64,000 nt of DNA from Terracidiphilus sp. (GCA_049515155.1 JBEKUK010000004.1:24032-88031), one strand, 5' to 3'; shown: positions 2-60,545, numbered from the stretch's first letter. Numbers and translations are program-made. The notes: generated from the letters alone by a model not told the origin.

Positions 2-325
2 CCCCGCTATGTGAAGCCGGAAGACGTGACCACCGAAGATCTGGAACGCGAGAAAGATATCTTTCGCGCACAGGCCGCGGCTACGGGCAAGCCTGCACCT
101 GTGATCGAGCGCATTGTGGATGGCAAGATGGCCAAGTTCTACGAGGAAGTTTGCCTGCTTGAGCAGCCTTTCATCAAGGATCAGGCCGTCAGCATCAAGG
201 AACTGATTGCGCAGAAGGTGGGCAAGCTGGGCGAAAACATCACGGTGCGCCGCTTCGCGCGCTTCAAAGTGGGCGCGTCCGACTGGACCGTGGCGCAGAC
301 CAAGGCCGTGGAAGCGGGCGAGTAG
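2..325 (+). CDS. tsf: Elongation factor Ts, C-terminal fragment (5' end lies outside the window)
   Basis: The frame of ORF 11..325 stays open back to nt 2. The translation PRYVKPEDVTTEDLEREKDIFRAQAAATGKP...DGKMAKFYEEVCLLEQPFIKD matches the conserved C-terminal part of EF-Ts. Stop TAG at 323-325; pyrH lies nearby. Confidence 0.9.
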   Translation, partial: PRYVKPEDVTTEDLEREKDIFRAQAAATGKPAPVIERIVDGKMAKFYEEVCLLEQPFIKDQAVSIKELIAQKVGKLGENITVRRFARFKVGASDWTVAQTKAVEAGE

Positions 326-5450: not shown

Positions 5451-6662
5451 TTACGGGCTGACAGTTTGAATGGAATGGTTGCCGTGTGGCACCGCGGCCA
5501 GCGCCGTGGGTGTATCCCCCACCGGATAGGGCGTTGACAGGGTGGGTGTCAGCGCGCCCGTGGTGGGGTTGATCTTGAAACCGGAGATTGAATTGCCCAG
5601 AGTGTTGGCCGTGTAAACGAAGCGCCCGAGTGCGGGATCGACAACTACCGCAACCGGGGTTGTATCGGTGTAGTTGAGCTGCGTGCCTGTAACGTTCACA
5701 GCGGCCGAGGGCGTTCCGGTGGTCAGATCGATGACATACGCCGACAGAGTCGAGTCGAGCCGATTGGGGATGTACATGTATTTCCCGCGCGGATCGATAA
5801 CTGCGGCGATCGGTTCGTTTCCGGTCTTGAAGGGGCCATTGATCAGGAAGTTGAGGGTACTGCCGCTCTGAATCGTGTAGCCGATGACTTCGCTGGACGC
5901 GAAGTCGCTGACGTAGACGAAGCGGTTGGTGGGATCGCTGACCAATGCGGACGGCTTGACCCCGGCTTCGTAGGGGCTGTTCGTGGAAGCGGTGAGCGCT
6001 CCACCGGATCCGACTGTGTAACCGAAGACCCATCCGGGATTGGCGGTGCTGGTCGTGGCGCCACCCGGATTATAGGCCGATTGATCGTAGGCCGAGACAA
6101 AGACCGCACCATTGTTGGCGAGGACGTTGACTCCGGTGGGGACGATCGTGTCGGCGGCGAAGCTGGGCAGGCTCAACGTGACCTGAGCCGCGATGGAGCC
6201 GATAGTGCCGCTCGACAGGGAGTACTCCGTGAGAACGGAGGGATTCGGGCCGGAGACGACATACAGGTAGGTTTGGGCCGTATTCACGGCAACCCACACG
6301 GGCGTCGCGCTTGTGGTGACGACGTCTTTTTGACTGAGAATGCCATTACCCGCGATGGCGAAATGGACGATGTTATTGCTGCCCTGGTTGACGACGTAGA
6401 GATTGGAGTAATCGGCGGTGGTCGTCATGGCAACGGGATTCACCCCGCCGCTCGGAATGACTGGCTGGCCGGACCGCAGGGCTCCTGTTTCCGAGTCGGC
6501 ATCGTAGGTCTGGATCTGACCGGCGCTTCCCGATCCCGAGCCTGAAGAATCGGCAACGAAGACGTAGTCGATGGTGACATACGCACAGGACGTCAGGAGT
6601 GAGGCGACCGCGAGGCCAAGAATAGAGACCAGGAAAAGCTGGCTCGTTTTGTTCAACTTCAT
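5451..6662 (-). CDS. Lipoprotein, lactonase-type 7-bladed beta-propeller family (paralogue 1 of 3)
   Basis: Signal peptide with lipobox LLTSC. Repeated blades of the type LYVVNQGSNNIVHFAI, FVYVSDFASSEVIGYTI, YMYIPNRLDSTLSAYVI and FVYTANTLGNSISGFKI. Confidence 0.8.
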   Translation of the reverse strand: MKLNKTSQLFLVSILGLAVASLLTSCAYVTIDYVFVADSSGSGSGSAGQIQTYDADSETGALRSGQPVIPSGGVNPVAMTTTADYSNLYVVNQGSNNIVHFAIAGNGILSQKDVVTTSATPVWVAVNTAQTYLYVVSGPNPSVLTEYSLSSGTIGSIAAQVTLSLPSFAADTIVPTGVNVLANNGAVFVSAYDQSAYNPGGATTSTANPGWVFGYTVGSGGALTASTNSPYEAGVKPSALVSDPTNRFVYVSDFASSEVIGYTIQSGSTLNFLINGPFKTGNEPIAAVIDPRGKYMYIPNRLDSTLSAYVIDLTTGTPSAAVNVTGTQLNYTDTTPVAVVVDPALGRFVYTANTLGNSISGFKINPTTGALTPTLSTPYPVGDTPTALAAVPHGNHSIQTVSP

Positions 6663-6808
6663 GCGCTTCCTTCGTGAAGGGCCGCGTTCTTCAGGCCCAG
6701 GAAAACTCGTTTAGGTTGCCCCGCATTCAATTGTAAAAGCCTGTTACGGGGTGTTGCTCTTGCATCCATTAGGCAGCGCTGGTGTCGGCACTGCCACGCC
6801 AAACCCTG

Positions 6809-8050
6809 TTATTTCGAAGTGCTTGTGCTCCCGTGCGTGATAGCGACGATCGCCGTAGGCAGCGCGTCCACCGTATACGGAGAGTTCTGCGAATTGACGA
6901 GCGTACCGGCAGTGGGGCTTAGCTCAAAGCCTGAAACCGTTCCGTTGGTAATGGTGCCAAGGTAGTTGGCGGAATAGAGAAAGTGGTTCGTTGAAGGATC
7001 GATGCCGATGGCCACGGGTTGATTGCCGGTGGCATAGGTGCCGACAGCCGAGAGCTCTCCGTCGTTGAGCGAATATGCCGCAATCGTGTTGTCGATCGAA
7101 TTGGCAACATAAACAAATGGATATTTCGGATCGGCGACAATGGCGTCAGGCTGATTGCCCGCGGCAAACGGGCTGCCCGCGAGAAACGTGAGCTGGCCGG
7201 CGGAAGCGATGGAATAGCCGAGGACGTTGGCGCTGCCCTTGTCGGTGACATAGAGGTAGGCGCTGGACGGGTCGCTGGTGACAGCGGAAGGATGAACACC
7301 GGCAGGGAAGGGAATGCCGCCGTTGAGCGGTGTCAGGCCGCTATTGGCATTGGCCGCGAAACCGAAGACGTATCCAACATTCGGAGTTACCGACGCGTCG
7401 TAAGCGGTGACGTAGACAAAGGCGCCGGTGGGCGTGACGCCGATGCCCGTAGGCACGATCACGTCGGCCGGGCTCGAGGGCAGGCCTATCGGCCAGTAGG
7501 CGAGGTTTCCATTCGTGAGCGGCGTGCCCAGTGAATCGCTTGGCGGCGATCCGGAACCGACGGTGATCGGAAACACGCCGACCGAACCTGAGCATGGAGC
7601 AGCTGCGGAACAGGCGGCAAGCGGTTGATAGGTGTCGACCACGTAAAGGTTCGTGCCGTTGACGGCGACTGCCATGGGATAGATCCCCGGTGTATTCACG
7701 GTGGCCTGGGGATAGACCTTGCCATCGTTGCCGATCACGAATTGAACGATGGTGTTGTCGTCCTGGTTGACAACGTAAAGGTTCGACTGGTCGGCGGAGA
7801 CAGCTTCGGCCACAGGGTTGCGTCCGCCGGAAGGAAACGGCGAAGTGGGGATGTGGCGCATATATCCCGATTCGGAGTTGATTTCGAGGACATCGATCTC
7901 GCCGTAGTTATTGGTTCCTGCAGCTTTTGAACTGGTTACGAAGACAAAGTCCACCGTCAGCGTGGAGCAAGCGGAAACAAGTCCAGACACCAGAAGGCCA
8001 GCCGCGGAGACCAACAAGAGCTGGCTCGATTTGTTGAACTTCATGCGCAT
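6809..8050 (-). CDS. Lipoprotein, lactonase-type beta-propeller family (paralogue 2 of 3)
   Basis: MKFNKSSQLLLVSAAGLLVSGLVSAC (lipobox). Blades LYVVNQDDNTIVQFVI, YLYVTDKGSANVLGYSI, FVYVANSIDNTIAAYSL and FLYSANYLG..VSGFEL. The start is 8050 or 8044. Confidence 0.8.
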   Translation of the reverse strand: MRMKFNKSSQLLLVSAAGLLVSGLVSACSTLTVDFVFVTSSKAAGTNNYGEIDVLEINSESGYMRHIPTSPFPSGGRNPVAEAVSADQSNLYVVNQDDNTIVQFVIGNDGKVYPQATVNTPGIYPMAVAVNGTNLYVVDTYQPLAACSAAAPCSGSVGVFPITVGSGSPPSDSLGTPLTNGNLAYWPIGLPSSPADVIVPTGIGVTPTGAFVYVTAYDASVTPNVGYVFGFAANANSGLTPLNGGIPFPAGVHPSAVTSDPSSAYLYVTDKGSANVLGYSIASAGQLTFLAGSPFAAGNQPDAIVADPKYPFVYVANSIDNTIAAYSLNDGELSAVGTYATGNQPVAIGIDPSTNHFLYSANYLGTITNGTVSGFELSPTAGTLVNSQNSPYTVDALPTAIVAITHGSTSTSK

Positions 8051-8352
8051 CTTTCGTCAGGGGGCCGATTCATCAAGCCCCGAAAAATCTGGTTTGGAAT
8101 CGAACGAGGGCGGAACGAGTGTTGATCCAGGCCCAGCATCCGGCTACGTTCGTAAAGACTACAAGAAAACATTTGAAACCCGGCCGGGGTGAGCCCGTTG
8201 ACTGTAACCCGGCCCGGTGCGAAGCGAATTGTCGATCGGCGCCTTGAGCTTGATTTCCCGCGTCTTTCCGGATTGGGCTGCGGAGGCTTCAGAACTCACG
8301 AAGAAGTCATCAGCTTGCAGCGGGCCGGCAACACGGCGGGAAACAAGGCGCA

Positions 8353-9669
8353 TCAGTTGGTGCGTCCGTCGACCAGGCACCATGTGGCCGGGCCTTGCAG
8401 CGCATAGGTCTTATTGACGCGCAGGTTGTTCAACACCCCAGAGTTGGGATCAACCACACGGCCTGAGACGGAGGAGTCGTTGTAGTCGGCAGAGTAGATG
8501 AACTGGTCTGAGGGGTCCTCGACGAGGCATTGCGGGCCCGAACCGGATCCGAAAGGCTCACCGGCGATGAAGCTGAGCTGGTGCGTGGAGGGATCGATGA
8601 CATATCCGGCCAGACCACTGTCGCTGTTGGTGCCCTGCACGTTGTTGCCTTGATTGGCAACGTAGAGGAATTTGCCCTTGGATTCAACCAGCAGCACGAT
8701 CGGGTTGGCGAGGGTGGTATCGTCGGGAACAACGCCGCCGGTCTGGGCCTGGAGCGCTCCGCCGGTTCCAACCGTGAAGGGAAGAATCTGGCTTGTTGCA
8801 CCCGTTCCACTAACATCGGTCCCCTCGTTGTCGAGGACGTAAAGATAACCCGAACCCGTACCGAGGGCCGTGCCTTGGAAAATGCCGAGCGGCTGGGCGC
8901 TGTTCTGGTTGATGGTCAACTGGCCGTTCGACGTGCTGTACGTGTAGGGAAAGATCGAATCGCCTGTGGTTGAATTGCCGGCCAGCGTCAGCAGATATCC
9001 CGAAGCGATGTTGAAGTCAATGGGATTGGCCGGGACCGGAAAGTAGGGTAGCGCCGTTCCGTTCGCCGCGGTCACCTGGGCATTCACAATCAGCGAAAGA
9101 CGTCCAGTGGTCTGGTTCACGGTGAAAGCCGTGACGTCGCCGCATGCGGTTGTGCCCGTACCCAGCGCCAATGCGCAAGCGGCGTTGCTGGGCGCGTCGT
9201 GGTCAAGCACGTACAAAAAATTTCCTGAAGAATCGCCGAGAATCCTGAAAGGATTGGTGCCCTGGGTATAGAAGGTTTCCTGCGCGGTGAGAATGCCGTT
9301 GCCACCGACTGCGAACTCCTGAATGTTGGAGTTCTGGCAGGGGTCGGCGGTGGTGCAATCGGCGCCGCCTGAAGAATTGACGCCGCGGTTCAAAACGTAG
9401 ATGAATTTGCTGCCTACGGTGAGAATGGCGCGCACCGGATTGGCTCCGCCAGAAGAAATGGGCAATCCATCGATCGGATTGAGTTTTCCGGTGTTGTGGT
9501 CGATATCGAAGCCGCTGATAATGCCGTTGCCTGAGTTCTGAGACGTCACTGTTCCCGTCACGTACAAATAACCCACTGTGTAACTTTCAACGCAAGACGT
9601 CACGCCGAGGAACACCGCACCGGAAAGGGCGCTCATCAGAAGTGCCTTGCTCAATTTCGTAAACTTCAT
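8353..9669 (-). CDS. Lipoprotein, lactonase-type beta-propeller family (paralogue 3 of 3)
   Basis: MKFTKLSKALLMSALSGAVFLGVTSC (lipobox). Blades IYVLNRGVNSS, FLYVLDHDAPS, YLYVLDNEGTD, FLYVANQGNNV and FIYSADYNDSSVSGRVV. Confidence 0.8.
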   Translation of the reverse strand: MKFTKLSKALLMSALSGAVFLGVTSCVESYTVGYLYVTGTVTSQNSGNGIISGFDIDHNTGKLNPIDGLPISSGGANPVRAILTVGSKFIYVLNRGVNSSGGADCTTADPCQNSNIQEFAVGGNGILTAQETFYTQGTNPFRILGDSSGNFLYVLDHDAPSNAACALALGTGTTACGDVTAFTVNQTTGRLSLIVNAQVTAANGTALPYFPVPANPIDFNIASGYLLTLAGNSTTGDSIFPYTYSTSNGQLTINQNSAQPLGIFQGTALGTGSGYLYVLDNEGTDVSGTGATSQILPFTVGTGGALQAQTGGVVPDDTTLANPIVLLVESKGKFLYVANQGNNVQGTNSDSGLAGYVIDPSTHQLSFIAGEPFGSGSGPQCLVEDPSDQFIYSADYNDSSVSGRVVDPNSGVLNNLRVNKTYALQGPATWCLVDGRTN

Positions 9670-19383: not shown

Positions 19384-20814
19384 ATGTCGAATCCAGTTTT
19401 AATCTGCGTGATCGGATCCGGGTATGTTGGCCTGGTTGCCGCCGTCTGCTTTGCAGAGATGGGCCACTCGGTCATCTGCGTGGATAACGACGAAGCCAAG
19501 GTCAAAATGCTCCGCGAAGGCGGCGTTCCGATTTTTGAAGACCAGCTTCCAGAGTTGCTTGCGCGCCATCGTGGCCATGGCGTCCAGTTCACGAACGATC
19601 TGTCCTTCGCTGTGCACAAATGCGAAGCTGTCTTCATTGCCGTAGGAACGCCGCAGGGCGACGCCGGCGCGGCTGACCTGTCCTATGTTGAGGCCGTGGT
19701 CTCTGAGATTGCCCGCCACATTCACTCCTACAAAGTGATCGTGGAGAAGAGCACGGTTCCGGTCTACACGAACGAGTGGATTCAGCGCGTGCTGCATCGC
19801 CACGGCGTGGATCCGAAAAGCTTTGACGTTGTGTCGAACCCTGAATTTCTGCGCGAAGGCACGGCCATCTCCGATTTTCTGCACCCGGACCGCATTGTCG
19901 TGGGCGCCAACTCCGATCGCGCCGCCGAGTTGCTGCGCCGGATCTACGAGCCGCTGAGCTCGGGCAGCTACTACGAGAAGCCCGGAGCGCTGGCAGGCGT
20001 ATGCAGCGCGAAGAACCCGGCGAAGATCGTGATCACCTCAGCCCAGAGCGCCGAAATCATCAAGCATGCTTCGAACGCCTTCCTGGCGCTGAAAATTTCA
20101 TTCATCAACGCGGTCGCGAATCTTGCCGAGGCCGTTGACGCGGACATCGAACACATTGCCGAAGGCATGGGTCTCGACAGTCGCATTGGACCGAAATTCC
20201 TGCGCGCCGGCCTCGGCTACGGCGGAAGCTGCTTCCCTAAAGATGTGGCCGCGTTTCACTGGGTGGCTCAGCAGCATGGCGTCAACTTCCAATTGCTCGA
20301 GGAGATTCGCAAGATCAATGAAACGCAGCGCGATATTTTCTTCAACAAGGTTCTCTCGGCTTTGTGGACACTGCGTGGCAAAAAGCTCGCCGCGCTGGGC
20401 CTGTCATTCAAGGGAGACACGGACGACATTCGCGACTCGCCGGCAATCGCGGTGATCCGCAAGCTCCTCGAGGCAGGCGCCACGATTACAGCCTTCGATC
20501 CCGCGGCCAACGAGCGCGCCATGGCTGTGCTTCCCGCATCAGACAAGATGCACTACGCCACGGGAATCTACGAAGCCGCCAAAGAGGCCGATGCCGTGTT
20601 GATTCTGACCGACTGGAAGCAGTTTGCACAGCTCGACCTGGTGAAGCTGAATCAGGTAGTCAAATTCCCCATCGTGATCGACGGCCGCAATCTCTACAAG
20701 CCGGAACGGATGCAGGAGCACGGCTTTACGTACGTGAGTGTGGGCCGCCCGCCCCAGTATCATGCGCAGCAGGGGAAGCCGCGCAGTGTACGGGCGGTGG
20801 GTGTGCCGGGCTAA
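19384..20814 (+). CDS. ugd: UDP-glucose 6-dehydrogenase
   Basis: ICVIGSGYVGLVAAVCFAEMGHSVICVD Rossmann motif; GYGGSCFPKDV catalytic Cys motif; full length of 476 aa. Confidence 0.93.
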   Translation: MSNPVLICVIGSGYVGLVAAVCFAEMGHSVICVDNDEAKVKMLREGGVPIFEDQLPELLARHRGHGVQFTNDLSFAVHKCEAVFIAVGTPQGDAGAADLSYVEAVVSEIARHIHSYKVIVEKSTVPVYTNEWIQRVLHRHGVDPKSFDVVSNPEFLREGTAISDFLHPDRIVVGANSDRAAELLRRIYEPLSSGSYYEKPGALAGVCSAKNPAKIVITSAQSAEIIKHASNAFLALKISFINAVANLAEAVDADIEHIAEGMGLDSRIGPKFLRAGLGYGGSCFPKDVAAFHWVAQQHGVNFQLLEEIRKINETQRDIFFNKVLSALWTLRGKKLAALGLSFKGDTDDIRDSPAIAVIRKLLEAGATITAFDPAANERAMAVLPASDKMHYATGIYEAAKEADAVLILTDWKQFAQLDLVKLNQVVKFPIVIDGRNLYKPERMQEHGFTYVSVGRPPQYHAQQGKPRSVRAVGVPG

Positions 20815-20860
20815 GCAGTTGGCGGCAGTTTTTTCATTTCATATTTTGGAAGATTGAGGG

Positions 20861-21808
20861 ATGCGCATGCACGTTCTGGTTACCGGTGCGGCCGGCTTTT
20901 TGGGCTCACACCTTACTGACCGGCTCTTGTCGGAGGGACACTCTGTTCTCGGAGTCGACAATCTCGCCACCGGCGATAGGGAGAATCTTGCTCATCTTGC
21001 ACACGAGCCGCGCTTCCGGTTTGAAGAGCGGGATATTTGCGAAGCTTTCGATCCGGGCTCCGTCGATTACGTTTTTAATTTCGCATCTCCCGCCAGCCCG
21101 CCGGAATATCTTCGCTTGGCCATTGAGACCTTGCGCGTAGGGTCGGTGGGAACAGAGAACGCACTCGAAATCGCGCACAAATACGGCGCGGGATTTCTGC
21201 ATGCGTCGACTTCGGAGTGCTACGGCGACCCGCTCGTGCATCCGCAGACCGAAGAGTACTGGGGCAACGTGAATCCGGTCGGCCCGCGCTCCGTGTATGA
21301 CGAGGCCAAGCGTTATGCCGAGGCGCTGGTGATGGCCTATCACCGCTCGCGCGGCGTCAATACGCACCTGGTCCGCATCTTCAACACCTATGGGCCGCGC
21401 CTCCACCCCAGCGACGGCCGCGTGATTTCAAACTTCATGATGCAGGCGCTCGAAGGCGAGCCGCTCACCATTTACGGCAATGGAAAGCAGACACGCAGTT
21501 TCTGTTACGTCGACGATTTGATCGAAGGCATTCTGCGCCTCTCGCGCTCCGATGAGCATTTGCCGGTCAACATCGGCAATCCGGATGAATTCACGATTCT
21601 GGAATGCGCGCAAGCCGTCCTCGAAGTGACTGGATCGCGCAGCGAGCTAGTGTTCAAACCGCTATCTGAAGACGATCCGACCCGTCGCAAGCCCAACATT
21701 GCCAAGGCCCGCACCCTGCTCGGCTGGGAACCCCGCATCCCGCTGCGCGAAGGCCTTGCCAAATCCCTGCCTTACTTCCAAAGCAAATTACAAGTTCGGC
21801 AATCGTAG
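20861..21808 (+). CDS. uxs: UDP-glucuronate decarboxylase (UDP-xylose synthase), SDR family
   Basis: [23 protein letters not shown] and YDEAKR (YxxxK). Sits immediately downstream of ugd. Confidence 0.9.
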
Positions 21809-22037: not shown

Positions 22038-25000
22038 ATGCGCAGGCTGATTCTTCTCGGGCTGATGGCCTTTTTGGTGCTGCCCGCCGAGGCCGCCAAA
22101 CGCATCACCGTGCAGCAACTGGAACAGGCCCTCGCGGAAGAAACAGCGTCTCATCGCGCCGATGCCGAAGTCGTCCATCGGCTGGCTGAGGTTGAACTCT
22201 CGCAGCGCCTGACCGATGAGACCCTGGATCGCTTTGTGCGTAAACTCCCGCTGGGGCCAAGAACCGCTCTGGCGCTGGAGATGCTTGCCGACCAATCGGC
22301 ATTTCTTGACCCGCCGCCCAGCGAGTTGCCGGCCACGGAAAACCCCGACACCGCCACCCAGCAGCGCATGATGGACATGGCGCGCGGCTATGTGGTGAGC
22401 ATCTGGCCGCATCTGCCGGACTTCTTTGTCAGCCGGACTACGGCGCGTTTCAACGATGCGCCCCAGGTGGTGCACGAGGGCGACTGGCCGGTTCGCCTGG
22501 GCCTGCACCTGGTGGGCACAGCCACGCGCAACGTCACTTATCGCGATGGAAAAGAGACGCAGGATCAGGCAACGGAAACCGCTGCATCCGGCGCCACGAC
22601 GGCCGTTCCCGCCGAGCAGCAGGAACGCGGCATGGCGGCGTGGGGAACCTTCGGCCCTGAACTGACAATCGTACTCACGGATACGGCCAAAGGCACGGTG
22701 AAGTGGAGCCATTGGGAACGCAGCGCCAACGGACTGTCCGCCGTGTACAGCTACTCCGTGCCCAAGGCGGCATCGCGCTTTGAGGTGAGCTATTGCTGCC
22801 TTCGCGAAGACGCGCCCAGCCAGCGGCGCGAGTTGCGCTACGGCGGGCCAGGCCGCGCTCAACAAACGGGAGTTGCTACCGCGCCGGCCACGGCCAAAGT
22901 CTTTCGCGCGACGCCCGGCTACCACGGTGAAATCGCAGTTGACCCCAATACGGGCGCGATTCTTCGCGTGACCCTCGAGGCTGAGTTGAAGAACGACGAC
23001 CCCATTACCCGCGCGGCCACAGTCGTCGATTATGGCCCGGTCATGATCGGGGATCGGAAGTACATTTTTCCGACGCGCAGCCTTGCGTTTTCGATGGAGC
23101 AACCGGCTCAGAACGGAAAGAGCCAGGACACGCCCGTTCTGCTGATCAACCAGACCCAGTTCACGCACTATCACCGCCTGGGAAGCAGCATTCGTCTGCT
23201 GACGAATGAGGCCGCCGCCGAAGCCGGCGCGAGCGGAACTCCGGCCACGGACAGTTCCACTGCGACAAATTCCGCTCCGGCCACCCAGTCGCCCGTAGCT
23301 GCGTCCACCGGGGCGCCAGCCGAAACAACCGCGACACCACCGCCCACGACCACCGCCGCAGCCGCGCCTGTTGCGCCGGAGCCACCAATGGCCGCGCCCG
23401 CTCCTCATGCCGATGCTGCCGGCACTGAAATGAGCATTACGGCCGCTGCCGGAGTTCCGGACGATTCCGCCAACCCGGTCAACCCGTCGGCAGGCGACTT
23501 CCAACTCAAAGTGACTTCCCGCCTGGTCGACGTGGGCGTGGTGGTAAACGACAAGAAAGGTCATCCGATCACAGATCTGAAGGCTGAGGATTTTGAGATC
23601 TACGACAACGGCCGCAAGCAGGAGCTTCGTTTCTTCAACGAATTCTCCAGCAACCCGGCCGCTCCGGTTGCGGATACAAAGCCGGATCGCAGTTTCACCA
23701 ACCGCGCGCCCGACGCAACGTCCACCGCGTCCACGGGAGCGGGTGCCACCGTCGTGTTAATTGACGAGTCGCACATCGCCTGGCCTGACATGGCTCATGC
23801 GCGTCAGGAGATTCTGCGCTTTATCGCGACGCTCGCACCCAGCGAACGTGTGGGCATTTATACCATGACCGCTCTCGGCTTCCGCGTGCTTCAGGAAATC
23901 ACCACCGATCACGCCGCGCTGACAGCGAAGCTGAATGCGTGGATGCCGACGGCACGGTCCGCCTCGCTTGCGCAGGAAGAGGAAACACGCAATCGCCAGT
24001 CGTTCAACGAAGTGCACTCGACGGCGGATCTGAATTCAGTGAACGGAAACTTTAACGACGTGCCCGATGCGCAGCAAACCGTCGATCCCATCCTGCGCAC
24101 TATGGGCAGCAATCCCGGCCGCGCTTCGCTCATCATTTTGCGCATGGTGGCGCGCCATCTCTCGGCTGTCCCCGGACACAAGAATCTCGTCTGGGTTTCT
24201 TCCGACAATGTCTTTGCCGACTGGCGCAGCAACCAGGTTGCCATCGATAAGAGCCCCAAGGAAGTCGACTCCTTCGCCATGCACGCGCAGGAAGCGATGA
24301 ACGACGCACATGCGGCCGTCTACCCCATGGACGTCTCCCAACTCGAGGCGCAGACCGTTTCGGCCGATATTCGCACGCGCAATGTGGAACTGACGCAAGC
24401 CGCCGCGGATACGGCAAGCTTGAACGGTGGTTCGTCCACCGGCACTCTGGCGCCGGGGCGCATTACGGCGGAGATGCAGCAGGACATGCACCCCATACAG
24501 GGACCGGTCCGCATGGTGGCCGATGCCACGGGAGGCCGCGTGATTCGCCGCGCCGGCGACCTGGCTGCCGCGCTGAATGGAATCGTCGAAGATGGCCACG
24601 CCACGTACATGGTCAGCTTTTCTCCGCGCGATGCGGCCGACGATCAGTACCACACCATTACGGTCAAGCTCGCGGGCAAGCACAAAGACGTTTCTCTGCG
24701 TTATCGAACGGGATATCTTTACGCGAAGGAACCAGTCTCTCTCAAAGACCGCTTCCAGCAGGCTGTTTGGCGGCCCGTGGATGTGGGCGAGATTGCCGTC
24801 ACGGCCGATACCGCCCCGGCTGCATCGCACGCCGAACTCAAGCTTGGCATCACGGCCGCGGATCTGGGTCTCCGCCAGCAGGCGGGCCTCTGGATGGATA
24901 AGCTCGACATCTTCTTCATCCAGCGCGACGATGCTGGGATCAAAGCACAGGTGGAGGGACAAACCCTGGGGTTGCGCCTGAAGCCGGCGACGTACCAAAG

Positions 25001-25145
25001 CCTCCTCTCCTCCGGCATTCCCTTCGAACATGAGGTGTCGATGCAGAAAGGCATGGGCTCGCTGCGGGTTCTGGTTGTGGACGAGAACTCGGGCCGCATG
25101 GGGTCGGTAACCATCCCGGCCAACGCCCTGGAGGCCGCAAAATGA
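22038..25145 (+). CDS. Secreted 1035-aa protein: unassigned N-terminal module plus a VWFA-related acidobacterial-type domain
   Basis: Signal peptide MRRLILLGLMAFLVLPAEA. The N module is paralogous to the next two genes. An A/P/T-rich linker follows, then FQLKVTSRLVDVGVVVNDKKGHPITDLKAEDFEIYDNGRKQELRFF...VVLIDES. From memory this resembles TIGR03436-type VWFA-related domains. Confidence 0.85.
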   Translation: MRRLILLGLMAFLVLPAEAAKRITVQQLEQALAEETASHRADAEVVHRLAEVELSQRLTDETLDRFVRKLPLGPRTALALEMLADQSAFLDPPPSELPATENPDTATQQRMMDMARGYVVSIWPHLPDFFVSRTTARFNDAPQVVHEGDWPVRLGLHLVGTATRNVTYRDGKETQDQATETAASGATTAVPAEQQERGMAAWGTFGPELTIVLTDTAKGTVKWSHWERSANGLSAVYSYSVPKAASRFEVSYCCLREDAPSQRRELRYGGPGRAQQTGVATAPATAKVFRATPGYHGEIAVDPNTGAILRVTLEAELKNDDPITRAATVVDYGPVMIGDRKYIFPTRSLAFSMEQPAQNGKSQDTPVLLINQTQFTHYHRLGSSIRLLTNEAAAEAGASGTPATDSSTATNSAPATQSPVAASTGAPAETTATPPPTTTAAAAPVAPEPPMAAPAPHADAAGTEMSITAAAGVPDDSANPVNPSAGDFQLKVTSRLVDVGVVVNDKKGHPITDLKAEDFEIYDNGRKQELRFFNEFSSNPAAPVADTKPDRSFTNRAPDATSTASTGAGATVVLIDESHIAWPDMAHARQEILRFIATLAPSERVGIYTMTALGFRVLQEITTDHAALTAKLNAWMPTARSASLAQEEETRNRQSFNEVHSTADLNSVNGNFNDVPDAQQTVDPILRTMGSNPGRASLIILRMVARHLSAVPGHKNLVWVSSDNVFADWRSNQVAIDKSPKEVDSFAMHAQEAMNDAHAAVYPMDVSQLEAQTVSADIRTRNVELTQAAADTASLNGGSSTGTLAPGRITAEMQQDMHPIQGPVRMVADATGGRVIRRAGDLAAALNGIVEDGHATYMVSFSPRDAADDQYHTITVKLAGKHKDVSLRYRTGYLYAKEPVSLKDRFQQAVWRPVDVGEIAVTADTAPAASHAELKLGITAADLGLRQQAGLWMDKLDIFFIQRDDAGIKAQVEGQTLGLRLKPATYQSLLSSGIPFEHEVSMQKGMGSLRVLVVDENSGRMGSVTIPANALEAAK

Positions 25146-25294
25146 GGCCAGGATTGCGAGGACCGGATGGGGTACCGAAGTTTTTCCGGGAAGAGTAGAA
25201 TCAGGCCGACTCAGCGTCGACATAAACGCCGTAACCGGCACTTTTTTCCAAAGTCCAATGGACGTTCTGGCGTCAACTTAAGAGGAGTAAGAAG

Positions 25295-26482
25295 ATGAAA
25301 CGGATGGGATGGATTCTCGTTCTTCTCATGGCGGCTTCGCCCGCCTGGGCAGCCAAAAACATCACAGTGCAACAGCTCAAAGATTTGCTTACAGCCGATC
25401 AGCAGGCCAAGAAGGCCGATGCCGAAGTGGCCAATGAACTAAAAGAAGTGGCACTCACCGAGGAACTGACCACAACGGTCATGAACAGCCTGAGTTCGGT
25501 CCTGCCGGGTCAGGCCACGCTCGAACAGATTTACGTGCTCGAGGCCAAGAGCGCTATTCTCGCGCCGCCCGCCTCTGACATTCCAACCACGGCGGCGCCC
25601 GATGCGGCTGGGCAAAAGGCCATCCTCGACAAGGCCATGGATTATGCCTCCAAGACCTACGCGGCTTTGCCCACGGTGACGGCTACCAAAACCACCATCC
25701 GTTTCCAGGATAATGTTTCCGCGATGGCCGCAAGTTCAGGTATGCACTCGGGCGCCACCGGCGACTCATCCACCGACCCCAATCTCGCCGGCGGAACGCA
25801 ATTCATCCACTACATCAATACTAGCCAGACGCCGGTCAACATCCATAGCGGAATTGAGGACAATCCGCTTGTGAAAGACAAAACGCGCTGGGGAGCCAAT
25901 GGCTATATCGCGCTGCTTGGCCAGGGGCCAATTTTGAGCACGGTGCTGCAGGAAGCGAATGCGGCCGGAAAGTTCACGTTCGTTCGCTGGGAAACGGTCA
26001 CGGGCAAGAACACCGCCGTATTCTCCTACTCAGTCGATAAGAAAAAATCGCACTACGCGGTGAATTACTGCTGCTTCCCGCAACTCGAGCAGGCTGGCGT
26101 CGCCACGTTCACCTCGGCTTCGGCCGGCAGCGCGAAAGGTTCGGGTGGCGGCGGCGCAAAGGGGAATTTCCAGACCAACACCACCTTCGATAATTACAAG
26201 GCCACCGTCCCTTATCACGGCGAAATCTTTGTCGATCCTGACTCCGGCATCGTTCTGCGCCTTGTTACCATCGCCGAATTCAAGAACTCCGATGTCGTGC
26301 ACGTTGAAGATCAACGCATCGATTTCCTTCCGGTTGACGTCGGCGGCAAATCTCTGGTTCTCCCATCCAAGGCGATCGTCAACACTGAGGTCGTGCCCAA
26401 CGGCGACTCAGGCGGCGGAAAGTTCATCCTTCGCCACACCCTGTTCACATCCGAATACAAGGGCTACCAGGCCGGCAGCTAG
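25295..26482 (+). CDS. Secreted protein, stand-alone copy of the unassigned module (paralogue 2)
   Basis: AGAGGAG RBS; signal peptide ...ASPAWA. Collinear motifs with 22038..25145: AAKNITVQQLKDLL, PPASDIPTTAAPDAAGQKAILDKAMDY, FSYSVDKKKSHYAVNYCCFP and PYHGEIFVDPDSGIVLRL. Confidence 0.8.
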   Translation: MKRMGWILVLLMAASPAWAAKNITVQQLKDLLTADQQAKKADAEVANELKEVALTEELTTTVMNSLSSVLPGQATLEQIYVLEAKSAILAPPASDIPTTAAPDAAGQKAILDKAMDYASKTYAALPTVTATKTTIRFQDNVSAMAASSGMHSGATGDSSTDPNLAGGTQFIHYINTSQTPVNIHSGIEDNPLVKDKTRWGANGYIALLGQGPILSTVLQEANAAGKFTFVRWETVTGKNTAVFSYSVDKKKSHYAVNYCCFPQLEQAGVATFTSASAGSAKGSGGGGAKGNFQTNTTFDNYKATVPYHGEIFVDPDSGIVLRLVTIAEFKNSDVVHVEDQRIDFLPVDVGGKSLVLPSKAIVNTEVVPNGDSGGGKFILRHTLFTSEYKGYQAGS

Positions 26483-26611
26483 CGCGAACGCGCCAAGCTT
26501 CCCGGCGGCTCGAAAGTCAGGGCCGCCGGCAGCGTTTCGGCGATTGAACAACTGAAGCAGCCACCGCCTCTCGCAGAGTTGCGCGCCTCGGGAAGCCGCT
26601 CGAATACGCGA

Positions 26612-26870
26612 GTTTTTTTGTGCGCCAGTTTGCATGCAATTTTGCGTCGTTGGCGCAAAATTCAACTAGCAAGCTTCGGAAAGGGGTGTTGCTGCGCAGT
26701 CATCGCTTCCATAACCGGGCAGAAAGGGGCAACATCGTCCCGTAACCCCTTATCAGTCTAGATTCTGCAAATAACTCCTTTGGAATCTAGAATTTAGACG
26801 GGCTGCTCCGTTCTATCTATCTGAAAACAAAGAAGTTCTTTACAGAAATACCCTTTTTTTCTTTTTTTTG
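26612..26870 (+). repeat. Intergenic element of about 250 bp, copy 1 (inverted partner at 46187..46428)
   Basis: Shares long identical runs with the reverse complement of 46187..46428. These include the 30-mer tctagattctgcaaataactcctttggaat (26757-26786 = rc of 46274-46303), tttgcatgcaattt, gttggcgca and ttctttacagaaa. It ends in a T-rich tract, ccctttttttctttttttt. Confidence 0.78.
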
Positions 26871-27114
26871 AAAACAGAAAGAACGGCTCTTCACAGTCGG
26901 CATTCGAGCAACAGAGAAAATGGGCCTCGCGAAATCCCGCATCGCCAGAAGCGAAACTCCCGCACAATTCTTCGCACGACACTGATCCCAGTCACACCCT
27001 GATTTCCTTTTGACCCGTAGACTTTCGTTAACTGCAGCCTCGATGTGTTGGAATGGCCGGTCGCGAAACCGGATCGCGGATGGAAAGTTTCCGCCAGGTT
27101 GCTGGGAGAAAAAC

Positions 27115-28326
27115 ATGAAACGCTCGTTATGCCTTTTGCTTGCATGTTCTCTGGTCGCGCCGCTGTGGGCAGCGAAGAAAACAACAGTTCAGGAACTGAA
27201 AGACACGCTTGCCGCGCTCAACCAGGAAAAGAAGACCGATGAGGAAGTGGCAACGCGTTTGAAAGACATTGACCTCGGCGAAGAGTTGACCAGCGCAACC
27301 CTCAAGTTGCTTGCTCCTCTCATTCCGGGGCCGCTCTCGCAGGAACAGATGAACATTCTTGAAGGCCGCAGCGCCCTTCTGTCGCCACCAGCATCGGATC
27401 TTCCCACCTCACCTGCGCCCGACGCAGCGATGCAAAAGGCCATCCTCACCAGGGCCACCGACTACGCCAATAAGGTCTATGCGCAGAACCCGCGTTTCAT
27501 GGTGAAAAAAGTCACAGCCCGTTACCAGGACGGCGTACAGGGCATCCGCACCAACTCCGGGATGACTTCGAACGTCGGTCAGGCAGACCGCGCCTGGGAG
27601 CTGCCCAGCATGTACATGCGGTTCTATGGCAGCCATCTGGATGAAGTTGAAACCGATCATGGCGTTGAGAAACGGCCTGTTGAAAAGACGAAGGTGCCGT
27701 GGGGACAAAATGGCCAGGTATCGGAAGGCGGCCCAGGGCCGAATTTGAGCGTCATCCTGCAACAGGCCGAGGACAGTGGCAAGCTGAGCTGGCTCCGCTG
27801 GGAATCGATTGCCGGCAAGCCCTTCGCAGTTTTCTCCTTCGCCATCGATAAGAAAAAGTCGAATTACGTCGTGAACTATTGCTGTTTTCCGGTCACTGGC
27901 GATACGGGCCGCATGGGCTATGAAGGCACCGGAGCCAACTTCCAAACCGCAACCGATTGGAAGGACTTCAAAGCAACCGTTTCCTATCGCGGAGAGCTTT
28001 TCATCGACCCCGATACCGGCGTCATCGTGCGACTGATCACGCAGGCCGGACTGAAGCCGACCGACTTTGTGCACCAGGAAGACATGCGCATCGATTACGC
28101 ACCGCTGGTGATCGACGGAAGGGAACGCATGCTACCAGCCGATAGCTTTACCATCACCGAGGTGGTGCCGAACGGCGACAACTACGCGGCACGCTACTCC
28201 ATTCGCCACACAGTATTCGTTGCCACCTACCAGGACTACCAACTAGCCGACTCGGTAAATCCCGGTAAAATAGCTGGGCCTGGATTCGGCTCGCAAATTC
28301 TACAGAGAGCAGTTTGCGCAACATGA
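27115..28326 (+). CDS. Secreted protein, stand-alone copy of the unassigned module (paralogue 3)
   Basis: ATG at 27115; signal peptide MKRSLCLLLACSLVAPLWA. Motifs AKKTTVQELKDTL, PPASDLPTSPAPDAAMQKAILTRATDY, FSFAIDKKKSNYVVNYCCFP and SYRGELFIDPDTGVIVRL. Confidence 0.8.
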   Translation: MKRSLCLLLACSLVAPLWAAKKTTVQELKDTLAALNQEKKTDEEVATRLKDIDLGEELTSATLKLLAPLIPGPLSQEQMNILEGRSALLSPPASDLPTSPAPDAAMQKAILTRATDYANKVYAQNPRFMVKKVTARYQDGVQGIRTNSGMTSNVGQADRAWELPSMYMRFYGSHLDEVETDHGVEKRPVEKTKVPWGQNGQVSEGGPGPNLSVILQQAEDSGKLSWLRWESIAGKPFAVFSFAIDKKKSNYVVNYCCFPVTGDTGRMGYEGTGANFQTATDWKDFKATVSYRGELFIDPDTGVIVRLITQAGLKPTDFVHQEDMRIDYAPLVIDGRERMLPADSFTITEVVPNGDNYAARYSIRHTVFVATYQDYQLADSVNPGKIAGPGFGSQILQRAVCAT

Positions 28327-28405: not shown

Positions 28406-29722
28406 ATGGCCCGGCTTCCTTCTCTTTTTTTAGGATCCACGTTGATCCTGTCCCTTCAGCTTGCCGCTTCCGGTCAGCAATTCAAACCAAAATCCATCCA
28501 GTTCAAGGGCGATCCGGAGTTTAGCGATCAGGAGCTTCTCGATGCAGCAGGCCTTCAGCCAGGCAAAATCCTGACCTCCGCCGAGATGGCCGATCACTCC
28601 AAGCGCCTTATGGATTCCGGCGTCTTCGATAATCTCACCTACAAGTTCGACGGACAGGACCTGGTCTATACGCTGACGCCCGCCGAGCATCTTTATCCAA
28701 TCCGGCTTGAGAACCTGCCGCTCGATGCTGGACCGGAACTCGATGCGAAGCTGCACCAAAAACTCCCGCTCTATCATGGCAAAGTTCCTTCCGAGGGCAC
28801 GCTCCTGGATGACGTACGCGCCGCGCTCGCGGAGATTGTCGCTGCGCAGGGCGCGCAGATTTCGATCACCGCTACGCCTTTCGGGCAAGCGAACTCGCGC
28901 AACATCAAGGCAATGAGTTTCTCCATCGCCTCACCTCCGGTCCATACCATCGTGATTCATATCGAGGGTGTTGCTGCAGCAGACGAGGGCAAGGTGAGGG
29001 CACTCCTCGCGGAAAGTGCCAAAATCCCTTTCGACAGCGAACATGCGAGCGGAAATCTGGAACAGTCAATCGGGTCCTTTTACGTGGACAAAGGATACGC
29101 GGGAGCCAAAGTGTCGGCGGCGCGCGTGGGCGACCTTCGCGTTGAACCGGGGGAACTCATCGTGCCGTACTCCATCAACATTGAACAGGGACCGCCATAC
29201 AAATTGGGAACCGTTCACCTGCCGGAGGGTACTCTTATGGCTCAGGACGAGGCGGACAGGCTTCTCGCTCCCACACCCGGGGGACCCGTCGACGGCGTTC
29301 GCGTGCGCAATCTGTGGGGGATTCTTTCCAGGCGATATCGCGCCAAGGGCTACCTCGACTGCAAAATCGACCCCCATCCTGCGCTCGACACCGAGGCAGG
29401 AGTCGTCAATTACACCGTGGACGTGACTCCAGGAGCTGTTTATCATCTGGGCTTTGTGAAATTCGACAATGTCGGCGATCAGCTGCGCAACTTGCTGATC
29501 AAGAACTGGCAGCTGCTCCCAGGGGATCCGTTCGATGAGTCGTATGTCTCCGACTTCATCATGAAGGCGCAAAAATCTGACCCCGTTTTAATGAGAACCC
29601 TCGCCGGTGTTCGTTCAAAGCTCGACGTGACGGCCGATCCCCAAACCCACGAAGTCAACGTGGTTCTCCGGCTGGAGAAGCCGCAGCCAGTGGCCGGGGC
29701 GGGCAGCGTACATTCGCAGTAA
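28406..29722 (+). CDS. Secreted POTRA-repeat protein with no recognisable beta-barrel
   Basis: Signal peptide, then IQFKGDPEFSDQELLDAAGLQPGKILTSAEMADHSKRLMDSGVFDNLTYKFDGQDLVYTL (POTRA-like). Later repeats follow, e.g. YHLGFVKFDNVGDQLRNLLIKNWQLLPGDPFDESYV. The protein ends at 438 aa with no Omp85-type barrel. Confidence 0.72.
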   Translation: MARLPSLFLGSTLILSLQLAASGQQFKPKSIQFKGDPEFSDQELLDAAGLQPGKILTSAEMADHSKRLMDSGVFDNLTYKFDGQDLVYTLTPAEHLYPIRLENLPLDAGPELDAKLHQKLPLYHGKVPSEGTLLDDVRAALAEIVAAQGAQISITATPFGQANSRNIKAMSFSIASPPVHTIVIHIEGVAAADEGKVRALLAESAKIPFDSEHASGNLEQSIGSFYVDKGYAGAKVSAARVGDLRVEPGELIVPYSINIEQGPPYKLGTVHLPEGTLMAQDEADRLLAPTPGGPVDGVRVRNLWGILSRRYRAKGYLDCKIDPHPALDTEAGVVNYTVDVTPGAVYHLGFVKFDNVGDQLRNLLIKNWQLLPGDPFDESYVSDFIMKAQKSDPVLMRTLAGVRSKLDVTADPQTHEVNVVLRLEKPQPVAGAGSVHSQ

Positions 29723-31642: not shown

Positions 31643-32032
31643 CTATCGAAGCATCTCCAACCTGGCCCCGACTGGCATTTTCGCCCAGATCTTGTCTGTC
31701 GTCCAAGCCGGGGCGTCCAGGTTTATGGCCAACGCAAGGCAGGCACGATCTCCGAGAGAAATATCAGGGCAGCGTTTCGCCAAAGCGGCAACCTGCTCCG
31801 CTTCGCCCTCGCCGAAGGGTACAACCGCGACTCCGGGCAATATAGCCTTCAATTTCTGCGGCGACATGATTGGGCTTTTCTGGCTGAGCTTCACCAGGAC
31901 TTCGCACAAGTTTACGGCGCTGATCGATATCGACAACAACGACGAAACGATAGCCTCATGAACTTTGGCGCCGCCAGGCTCGCCATACACCATCGCGAGA
32001 ACCGCCGAAGAGTCGAGCACGATGCTAGTCAT
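31643..32032 (-). CDS. vapC: PIN-domain toxin (VapC family)
   Basis: MTSIVLDSSAVLA (acidic residue 1), NLCEV, and GDRACLALA (later acidic residues). About 129 aa, overlapping the antitoxin gene by 8 nt. Confidence 0.85.
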   Translation of the reverse strand: MTSIVLDSSAVLAMVYGEPGGAKVHEAIVSSLLSISISAVNLCEVLVKLSQKSPIMSPQKLKAILPGVAVVPFGEGEAEQVAALAKRCPDISLGDRACLALAINLDAPAWTTDKIWAKMPVGARLEMLR

Positions 32033-32285
32033 TGTCGGGCTGTTCGCGGCGCGCCTCTTCACGACGTTCCTCCAGGAACTCGTCGAGAAGGCCGTCAAGG
32101 CTTCCGCGTTCTGCGATGATCGAATCCCTGATTTCTTTGAGAGCCATCTGCATGCTCAAGATTTCAATGTGGCTGTCCTTCACGATGACGGTCAAACGGT
32201 CTCCAGTCTTGAGATCGAACTGATTGCGTATGCTGGCCGGAAGAACGATTCTGCCGCTTTCCCCGAGAACTACCGTATCGGTCAT
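32025..32285 (-). CDS. vapB: AbrB/SpoVT-type antitoxin (VapB family)
   Basis: MTDTVVLGESGRIVLPASIRNQFDLKTGDRLTVIV is a swapped-hairpin AbrB-like fold motif. The tail is acidic, and the gene sits directly upstream of vapC. Confidence 0.8.
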   Translation of the reverse strand: MTDTVVLGESGRIVLPASIRNQFDLKTGDRLTVIVKDSHIEILSMQMALKEIRDSIIAERGSLDGLLDEFLEERREEARREQPDND

Positions 32286-32445
32286 ATTTTGCCACTCCAG
32301 CATCATTATGGCATATTCCGAAAGCCATGGCATATTTGAGGGATCTGGCGCCCGCAATTTATTCCTATTTTCAGTTTGGAGATGAAGATCTACGCAAATC
32401 CGGCAAGAATGGCGGCGAATCTGCGCCCGCCTCGACGGACAGTCC

Positions 32446-58117: not shown

Positions 58118-58339
58118 CAGCTGGCTCCGATGGTGTATTCGAGCAGCAAAGCATTTTGGCTCCGCAACGACGGGGAGGCCATTACGGCCACGCGACTGTG
58201 TGAATCATATCCGAATGGTGCGCCAACTTTGCGGCAACTGGTTTCCGGGAAGTGAGCGCCGTCCCTATGGGGCTGGATATGAATTGTTGGTTCCGCTTAC
58301 CCCACGCTGAAGCGCGGGGCTAATAAACACTGCGCCTAC

Positions 58340-58420
58340 GGCGCGAGCGACGGGCAGGCTCCGGGGCACCCAGCGGAATGCGCGATTTAGGCTTCCCAGT
58401 TTCCGGAATCGAGACCCTTC
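58340..58420. repeat. Degenerate REP-like remnant (locus 5)
   Basis: gcgagcgacgggcaggctccggggcaccc and ggcttcccagtttccggaatcgagaccc resemble decayed copies of the REP modules. Confidence 0.3.
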
Positions 58421-58453
58421 GACATGCTCAGGGCCGGCTTTGGGGCATTGAAG

Positions 58454-60331: not shown

Positions 60332-60545
60332 GCTTCCTCCATGGTAAGGCCACGGGAAGGGAAGTGGGTCGGCACAGGTCCGCTTTGTTATACTTCGGGA
60401 GTTATAAGCTTGGTAGAAACCGGTTTCAACGCGGCGCGCTTTTCGGGGTGCGGCGCTGTTTTTGCACTGTCTTGCGGGCCGGTATCGACACCAAAAATGA
60501 TTCATGCAGCGGCACGTTCCGCGTTCATCAACGAGGTAAGGGATT

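Follow-up and report, generated by a model that had tools for sequence, protein, structure and literature searches.

Proteins of the LolA/LolB superfamily have 11–13 antiparallel strands arranged as a curved sheet or an incomplete beta-barrel, accompanied by lid helices and a helix at the N-terminus, and the corresponding Pfam clan comprises LolA, LolB, LppX_LprAFG, MucB_RseB, DUF1329 and LolA_like. RseB/MucB and LprG/LppX, which bind lipids or glycolipids and act through a protein partner, are precedents for the coupling of lipid sensing or carriage to protein docking. Here, we describe a module of approximately 385 amino acids (aa) encoded by three neighbouring genes (A, B and C) in a stretch of 64,000 nucleotides (nt) from Terracidiphilus sp. 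(GCA_049515155.1 JBEKUK010000004.1:24032-88031; about 59% G+C), referred to below as the window. We suggest, with a probability of roughly 0.45, that it is an exported, LolA-like binder of a ligand that is hydrophobic or amphipathic, and possibly anionic, and that its partner, in cis or in trans, is a docking domain that is related to von Willebrand factor type A (VWFA) domains and lacks a metal ion-dependent adhesion site (MIDAS).

LolA3 of Porphyromonas gingivalis has a 13-strand antiparallel sheet, a hydrophobic groove and a basal helix, and does not carry the LolA/LolB signature residues (PMC13103446). The structures 4Z48, 3BK5 and 3BUU correspond to periplasmic LolA-superfamily proteins of mostly unknown function, and AmeB, a member of the DUF1329 family, is encoded in a monoterpene (RND) efflux cluster, a transposon insertion leading to poorer growth on monoterpenes (PMC6394551). 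The module resembles these LolA_like/DUF1329 proteins (3BUU, 4Z48, 3BK5 and 9TP6) in being exported and in its predicted layout, in which a helix at the N-terminal end leads into a sheet of about 13 antiparallel strands that includes an internal helix. However, it has no detectable sequence or profile similarity to them, and it has an additional N-terminal domain, predicted to be helical and about 75 aa long, together with a conserved Cys site and three loops of hypervariable length. It differs further in its obligate-looking partnership with a VWFA-related domain and in its tandem arrays of paralogues. RseB/MucB and LprG/LppX also combine a LolA-type fold with a second domain or partner, but their Foldseek probabilities were only 0.3–0.66, without sequence similarity, and the module has no anti-sigma gene, lipoprotein context or lipobox.

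The shared module and its family

The preliminary description of the locus reported three genes on the same strand, each encoding a signal peptide followed by the same set of motifs. The three open reading frames (ORFs) were found as described (Table 1), and tblastn searches of the window recovered exactly three copies of the module. In BLASTP comparisons, A and B were 31% identical (E=3e-47) and B and C were 44% identical (E=1e-119). A MAFFT alignment showed residues 1–385 of A to be collinear with the whole of B and C, with 80 invariant columns distributed along the entire length, so the similarity is not confined to the signal peptide or to low-complexity parts. All the motifs listed previously were recovered (ITVQQL/TTVQEL, DAEV/DEEV, PPxSxxP...PDxA..Q, V(S/N)YCC and Y(H/R)GE..(V/I)DP..G.I.R). 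The shared module is real and well above chance level. The signal peptides of A, B and C are of type I, without a lipobox, and end in AEA/AK, AWA/AK and LWA/AK, respectively, the slash marking the cleavage site. Gene C probably starts at the ATG at position 27115, which is preceded by GGGAG, the mechanically called ORF starting from a TTG at position 27010.

The module had also been described as unassigned, and this assessment held even at lax E-values. At E≤1, no Pfam match was found for A, B or C and the TIGR03436 domain of A was the sole NCBIfam match in the three proteins, the PADLOC defence-system models matched neither these proteins nor the neighbouring POTRA protein (see below), and PDB sequence and profile searches with the module returned no relative. 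Weak matches to DUF7283 and PorA in a few family members were rejected as noise. A word-indexed search with B yielded at least 1330 matches, all annotated as hypothetical and assigned to Terracidiphilus where an organism was named. An exhaustive profile search across 1.84 billion representatives identified 2285 clusters at 50% identity with E≤1e-3, including 770 with E≤1e-30. The sources naming an organism were restricted to Terracidiphilus, Acidobacteriaceae or Acidobacteriota, and look-ups of the clusters of divergent representatives returned only unnamed or hypothetical proteins. The 79 genome loci recovered came from metagenome-assembled genomes (MAGs) of Acidobacteriaceae, Terracidiphilus or Acidobacteriota and from the cultured Occallatibacter savannae AB23 (locus L062). 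At the sequence level, the module is a large family without a name.

Predicted fold, conserved residues and the Cys site

Two independent AlphaFold models were generated, one for full-length B (12 sequences; predicted local distance difference test score, pLDDT, 73; predicted template modelling score, pTM, 0.73) and the other for residues 96–395 of B (61 diverse sequences; pLDDT 79; pTM 0.79). The two models agree in layout (Table 1), and the order of their secondary-structure elements fits that of the LolA superfamily. In Foldseek searches against the PDB, LolA-superfamily proteins were the sole high-probability class for both models. The top six matches all belonged to this superfamily (probabilities of 0.95 to 0.99; E-values of 5.6e-4 to 1.4e-2), including the LolA-superfamily protein NE2245 (3BUU; E=5.6e-4, probability 0.99), a DUF1329 protein (4Z48; E=2.4e-3, 0.98), LolA3 (9TP6; E=4.4e-3, 0.99) and a LolA-like protein (3BK5; E=1.4e-2, 0.97), but their template modelling (TM) scores were only 0.29–0.44 and their root-mean-square deviations 8.5–12.5 Å, suggesting a shared fold class rather than close structural homology. 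LprG (3MH8/3MHA), LolA and MucB (6JAU) were found at lower ranks, and porins and PsbO had probabilities below 0.25. These predictions provide moderate support for the assignment of the beta domain to the LolA-superfamily fold class, which we consider likely rather than established. The previous view that the module could not be placed in any characterised family therefore stands for its sequence, but not for its predicted fold, given this resemblance, albeit with a weak TM-score.

Residue conservation was analysed over 372 module instances (B numbering). Residues W232, E233, V242, Y307, G309, P315, G318, R322 and P357 were identical in at least 90% of the instances, and H172, H253, C259, C260, H308 and D314 in 75–90%. 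The adjacent Cys pair (CC) at positions 259 and 260, previously described as invariant, is indeed present in the three copies in the window but, family-wide, it was found in 294 instances, as the only Cys pattern in 171 and together with Cys356 in 123. Another 60 instances had Cys356 only, seven had one Cys at position 259 or 260, and 11 had neither, six of these 11 being one half of a module-module fusion. A Cys residue at position 259/260 or 356 was therefore present in 361 of the 372 instances (97%). The CC pair is the sole source of Cys in the whole of A (1035 aa) and the whole of B, and 33 of 40 module-VWFA proteins have both CC and Cys356. Most members have one, two (adjacent) or three Cys residues, a pattern ill-suited to an ordinary structural disulfide, suggesting instead that these residues form a functional thiol site. 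Position 308 may be occupied by H, R, Q or K across the family, and copy C, which is conserved in its orthologues at 60–84% identity, has Arg, Asn and Arg at the otherwise conserved positions His172, His253 and His308, respectively. This tolerance favours a cationic or hydrogen-bonding role for these positions over metal ligation or catalysis.

Three loops of the module are hypervariable in length: loop 260–307, located directly after the CC pair (7–61 residues; standard deviation, sd, 12), loop 139–172 (sd 7.2) and loop 357–380 (sd 6.9). The segments outside these loops are nearly fixed in length. A binding module diversifying its specificity would be expected to combine a rigid scaffold and hypervariable loops in this way, in paralogues arranged in tandem.

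The Cys site raises the possibility, which we consider unlikely, that the resemblance to LolA is superficial and that the module is thiol-dependent, serving as an enzyme, as a redox, metal or cofactor site, or as a site of covalent attachment or intermolecular disulfide formation, with Cys259/260/356 and conserved His, Glu, Asp and Arg residues as its active site. The almost universal presence of a Cys at one of these positions, with more than half the exceptions lying in module-module fusions, would be consistent with this interpretation, as would the CC pair being the only Cys of A and B and the CC plus Cys356 pattern of most module-VWFA proteins. The number of Cys residues is, moreover, odd (one or three) in most exported members, unlike the situation for a purely structural disulfide. 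The conserved polar residues E233, H172, H253, H308, D314 and R322 could complete such a site, but the His positions accept Arg, Gln and Lys, and copy C is well conserved in orthologues despite lacking all three His residues. Furthermore, neither Foldseek nor sequence searches matched the module to any Cys enzyme fold, and neighbouring Cys residues on the predicted beta strand would face opposite sides.

The VWFA-related domain and the proposed role of the module

The C-terminal half of A had been recognised as a VWFA-related domain of an acidobacterial type with a degenerate MIDAS, and both elements of this description were borne out. The NCBIfam model TIGR03436 matched A residues 490–893 with 192.4 bits, for a cut-off of 81.25, identifying this region, as distinct from the module, as a genuine member of the family. 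The MIDAS-like stretch of A reads LIDESHI (D-E-S-H-I) and, whereas the Asp of the 'LLID' sequence is kept in 40 fused relatives, the later DxSxS positions are only 20–50% conserved. Accordingly, the canonical MIDAS (DxSxS...T...D) was not found, and the Pfam VWA models (PF00092 and related) gave no match in A at E≤1; a PDB sequence search with the VWFA half yielded a single chance match (E=0.7). The subgroup to which A belongs is distinguished by its fusion to the module and by its additional C-terminal domain of about 140 aa. To our knowledge, no function has been determined experimentally for the TIGR03436 family, and our literature search found no paper mentioning TIGR03436, or 'VWFA-related' together with Acidobacteria.

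Among the 150 best module representatives, 86 consisted of the module alone (one of which, P0243, also has a C-terminal TPR region), 51 were module-VWFA, nine module-module and four VWFA-module proteins. The VWFA-module order is represented by P0341, which was found in more than one source, and by P0386 (979 aa), a fuller member of the same cluster. In the genome loci, 43 of 45 orthologous module-VWFA junctions were in frame without a stop codon, and a linker gap of 250–440 nt was kept in the orthologues of A. The nearest relatives of the VWFA half of A were all module fusions (JGI name 'VWFA-related protein'). Stand-alone VWFA proteins of about 585 aa are present in databases, but these entries lack a signal peptide and start within the linker or the module, and were rejected as truncated or frameshifted calls of fusion proteins. 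Of the evidence obtained, the occurrence of fusions in both domain orders argues most strongly that the module and the VWFA-related domain are functional partners.

We propose that A, B and C are each exported via the Sec pathway by their type I signal peptides. The mature module would consist of a small helical N-domain and a LolA-superfamily-like open beta-sheet or half-barrel, in which a long helix precedes about 13 antiparallel strands and an internal helix could act as a lid. We infer that this module would act outside the cytoplasm, where it would bind a ligand that is hydrophobic or amphipathic and probably anionic; candidates include lipids, lipidated molecules, and acidic glycolipids or polymers. 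The rigid scaffold would carry W232-E233, Y307-(H/R)308-G309, D314-P315, R322 and the thiol site (Cys259/260 and/or Cys356), and the three length-hypervariable loops, including that immediately following the CC pair, would set specificity, which would explain the diverged tandem paralogues and their variable copy number. Given its degenerate MIDAS, the Acidobacteria-specific VWFA-related domain would be likelier to serve for protein docking than as a metal-dependent adhesin. In A, the two domains would act in cis; for B and C, the partnership would probably be in trans.

Several observations weigh against this interpretation. In addition to the low TM-scores and large deviations of the structural matches, Pfam searches at E≤10 over 61 family members revealed no LolA-clan family, or any other recurrent family. 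No conserved transporter, Lol or Lpt gene adjoins the module genes, and the solitary copies have no conserved operon partner, their neighbours including GH3, AIM24, AI-2E transporter, Ppx, PMT_2, FG-GAP, ankyrin and two-component system genes, and others. Finally, we know of no LolA-like carrier with a near-obligatory Cys site, and a different chemistry is possible.

Genomic context and implications

The locus is conserved in related Acidobacteriaceae, in which the order of the genes is HD, UDP-glucose dehydrogenase, UXS-like epimerase, zero to three module-VWFA genes, one to four module genes, the POTRA gene (where present), YetF, PadR, p271 and GuaA. Right-bounded arrays at this locus contain one to five module copies, and several MAGs hold two separate arrays (e.g. 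L012 and L037 from one MAG). In the closest relative (L015), B is 88% identical to the B of the window. Tandem amplification of the module is recurrent, since an independent triplet of A-type modules, 36–39% identical to module A and without a VWFA domain, was found between DUF507 genes and a MgsA-like ATPase gene in an unrelated locus (L082, positions 5477–9128; contig_38028, ENA ERZ25039590). PMT_2-type (ArnT/dolichyl-phosphate-mannose-like) glycosyltransferases lie beside solitary modules in two otherwise different loci (L021, 7804–9870; L076, 11466–13490), which may be a coincidence or a hint of glycosylation or of a lipid-linked sugar ligand.

Genes for UDP-glucose dehydrogenase and a UDP-glucuronate-decarboxylase-like epimerase are located directly upstream of A (19384–21808, + strand), and occupy the same place in many related loci. 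Together with the PMT_2 neighbours, they could point to a family of secreted or surface paralogues with a structural or adhesive role, in which the VWFA-related domain and the module would bind matrix, exopolysaccharide or cells, with no carriage of a small ligand. The variable copy number and tandem arrays, the A/P/T-rich linker, which is typical of extracellular multidomain proteins, and the module-TPR fusion P0243 would also fit such a role. However, the sugar-nucleotide genes belong to an extensive synteny block that runs through housekeeping genes as far as GuaA, so adjacency to the sugar-nucleotide genes, or to the POTRA gene, need not be functional and constitutes weak evidence. VWA-type domains are commonly adhesive, but the MIDAS is degenerate here, the C-termini show no evident signal for surface anchoring or sorting, and the best structural matches are periplasmic carriers rather than adhesins. 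We consider this possibility improbable, to about the same extent as the thiol-dependent domain discussed above.

The gene following C encodes an exported, BamA-like protein with polypeptide transport-associated (POTRA) domains only. This protein covers positions 4–357 of the 741 positions of the BamA model (64.8 bits, for a cut-off of 297), aligns with BamA residues 7–353 in PDB chains (POTRA1–5), and has a single Cys residue (Cys319). Unlike BamA/Omp85, it lacks the 16-strand barrel: the C-terminal Bac_surface_Ag barrel was not found and the next gene is YetF. The lack of a barrel makes such a POTRA protein unusual in its own right. The preliminary description took this neighbour as an argument for a dedicated system, but just 23 of the 43 right-bounded orthologous arrays contained the gene, which was missing from the closest relative and adjoined none of the 28 non-syntenic module copies. 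The broader suggestion of a dedicated envelope or surface system is thus borne out only for the module together with the VWFA-related domain, the POTRA gene being facultative and the solitary and tandem copies elsewhere having unrelated neighbours. Although the POTRA gene lies 80 nt after C, and within the module array in three loci (L038, L043 and L078), and porins and other outer-membrane barrels figure among the Foldseek matches, a split system of the Omp85 or two-partner type, in which the beta domain of the module would be the membrane barrel and the POTRA protein the periplasmic half, is highly improbable and largely refuted by the low scores of the porin and barrel matches (probability ≤0.1 and TM-score ≤0.17, versus probabilities of 0.95–0.99 for the LolA type), the lack of a Bac_surface_Ag (Omp85) Pfam match and of a C-terminal aromatic beta-signal in the module proteins (B ends in ...YQAGS and C in ...VCAT), the presence of the module at N-terminal, C-terminal and tandem positions in soluble-looking fusions, and the absence of the POTRA gene from 20 of the 43 arrays and from all non-syntenic copies.

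Table 1. Features of the module genes and their surroundings (window coordinates, or residues of protein B where indicated)
Feature	Position	Strand	Description
Gene A	22038..25145	+	1035 aa, single ORF: signal peptide, module, A/P/T-rich linker, TIGR03436 VWFA-related domain, C-terminal extension
Signal peptide of A	22038..22094	+	Residues 1-19, ...LPAEA/AK, type I, without lipobox Cys; read from sequence (basic n-region, hydrophobic core, A-x-A)
Module copy A	22095..23192	+	Residues 20-385, from alignment and BLASTP; CC pair at residues 253-254 (22794-22799)
A/P/T-rich linker of A	23193..23492	+	Residues 386-485, low complexity
TIGR03436 acidobact_VWFA domain	23505..24716	+	NCBIfam match, profile positions 3-321 of 324
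C-terminal extension of A	24717..25142	+	About 140 aa, conserved, W.DKLD...NSGR.GS.T.P; from conservation profile of 40 fused homologues; beyond the TIGR03436 match
Gene B	25295..26482	+	395 aa, stand-alone module; CC at 259-260 (26069-26074)
Signal peptide of B	B residues 1-19		Predicted layout
Helical N-domain of B	B residues ~21-95		Small; AlphaFold
Pro-rich connector of B	between helical domain and long helix		AlphaFold
Long helix of B	B residues 104-124		AlphaFold
Beta domain of B	B residues 128-393		About 13-15 antiparallel strands; AlphaFold
Internal helix of B	B residues 214-224		Among the strands; AlphaFold
Low-confidence loops of B	B residues 145-168 and 263-296		AlphaFold
Terminator-like hairpin and T-run	26598..26620	+	115 nt past the B stop codon; consensus scan
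Gene C	27115..28326	+	403 aa, stand-alone module; CC at 256-257 (27880-27885)
POTRA-only BamA-like protein	28406..29722	+	438 aa, exported, without beta-barrel; Pfam POTRA (4.9e-17) and POTRA_2

The spacer between B and C is unusually long in the window (633 nt, versus 212 nt in the closest relative) and has no Rfam match. The hairpin following B weakly suggests that A-B and C-POTRA are separate transcription units, the promoter and terminator scan as a whole being at shuffle expectation (12 sites, versus 9.0 expected). Part of the spacer consists of an intergenic repeat of about 146 nt, present in two copies that are 80% identical (26726–26869 on the + strand and 46334–46191 on the − strand), each 3' of a gene in the same orientation. 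The nearly identical 40-nt core of this repeat, CCTTATC.GTCTAGATTCTGCAAATAACTCCTTTGGAAT, holds a 9-bp inverted repeat, TCTAGATTC (26757–26765) and GAATCTAGA (26783–26791), and the repeat as a whole ends in a long T-run (RNA fold z-score −2.1). It had no Rfam match and was absent from 83 related loci. Two further features of the window were recorded. A gene pair encoding a PIN-domain toxin and a MazE/AbrB-type antitoxin forms an insertion between p271 and GuaA (31643–32357, − strand), and an Acido-Lenti-1 small RNA motif (Rfam RF01687; 39.9 bits, for a gathering score of 37) is located at positions 58300–58345 (+ strand), directly upstream of two large ORFs without Pfam matches (58424–60553 and 60546–62006).

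Acidobacteriota rank with the most abundant bacteria in soil, and the biology of their cell envelope is largely uncharted. The description of the module resolves no long-standing question, but it defines a large family (at least 2285 clusters at 50% identity, with no Pfam or NCBIfam model) with a testable LolA-like fold hypothesis, and it provides concrete candidates for testing: the Cys259/260/356 site, R322, H/R308 and the variable loops. Judging from its predicted fold, the module would belong to the LolA superfamily as a divergent and elaborated member, and its partnership with TIGR03436 is new and recurrent. This link by gene fusion to a paralogue-rich acidobacterial domain provides a first functional handle on both families. 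Going beyond our preferred interpretation of the module as an exported LolA-like binder coupled to a docking domain, one may speculate, with less confidence than for either of the two improbable alternatives considered above, that the module and the VWFA-related domain, joined by the POTRA protein in the loci that encode it, constitute an unrecognised envelope system specific to Acidobacteria, in which paralogue-specific LolA-like receptors would capture distinct lipidated or anionic cargo via the thiol site, perhaps covalently or by redox chemistry, and hand it over through VWFA docking. If true, such a system would represent a new trafficking or assembly route, rather than a variant of Lol.

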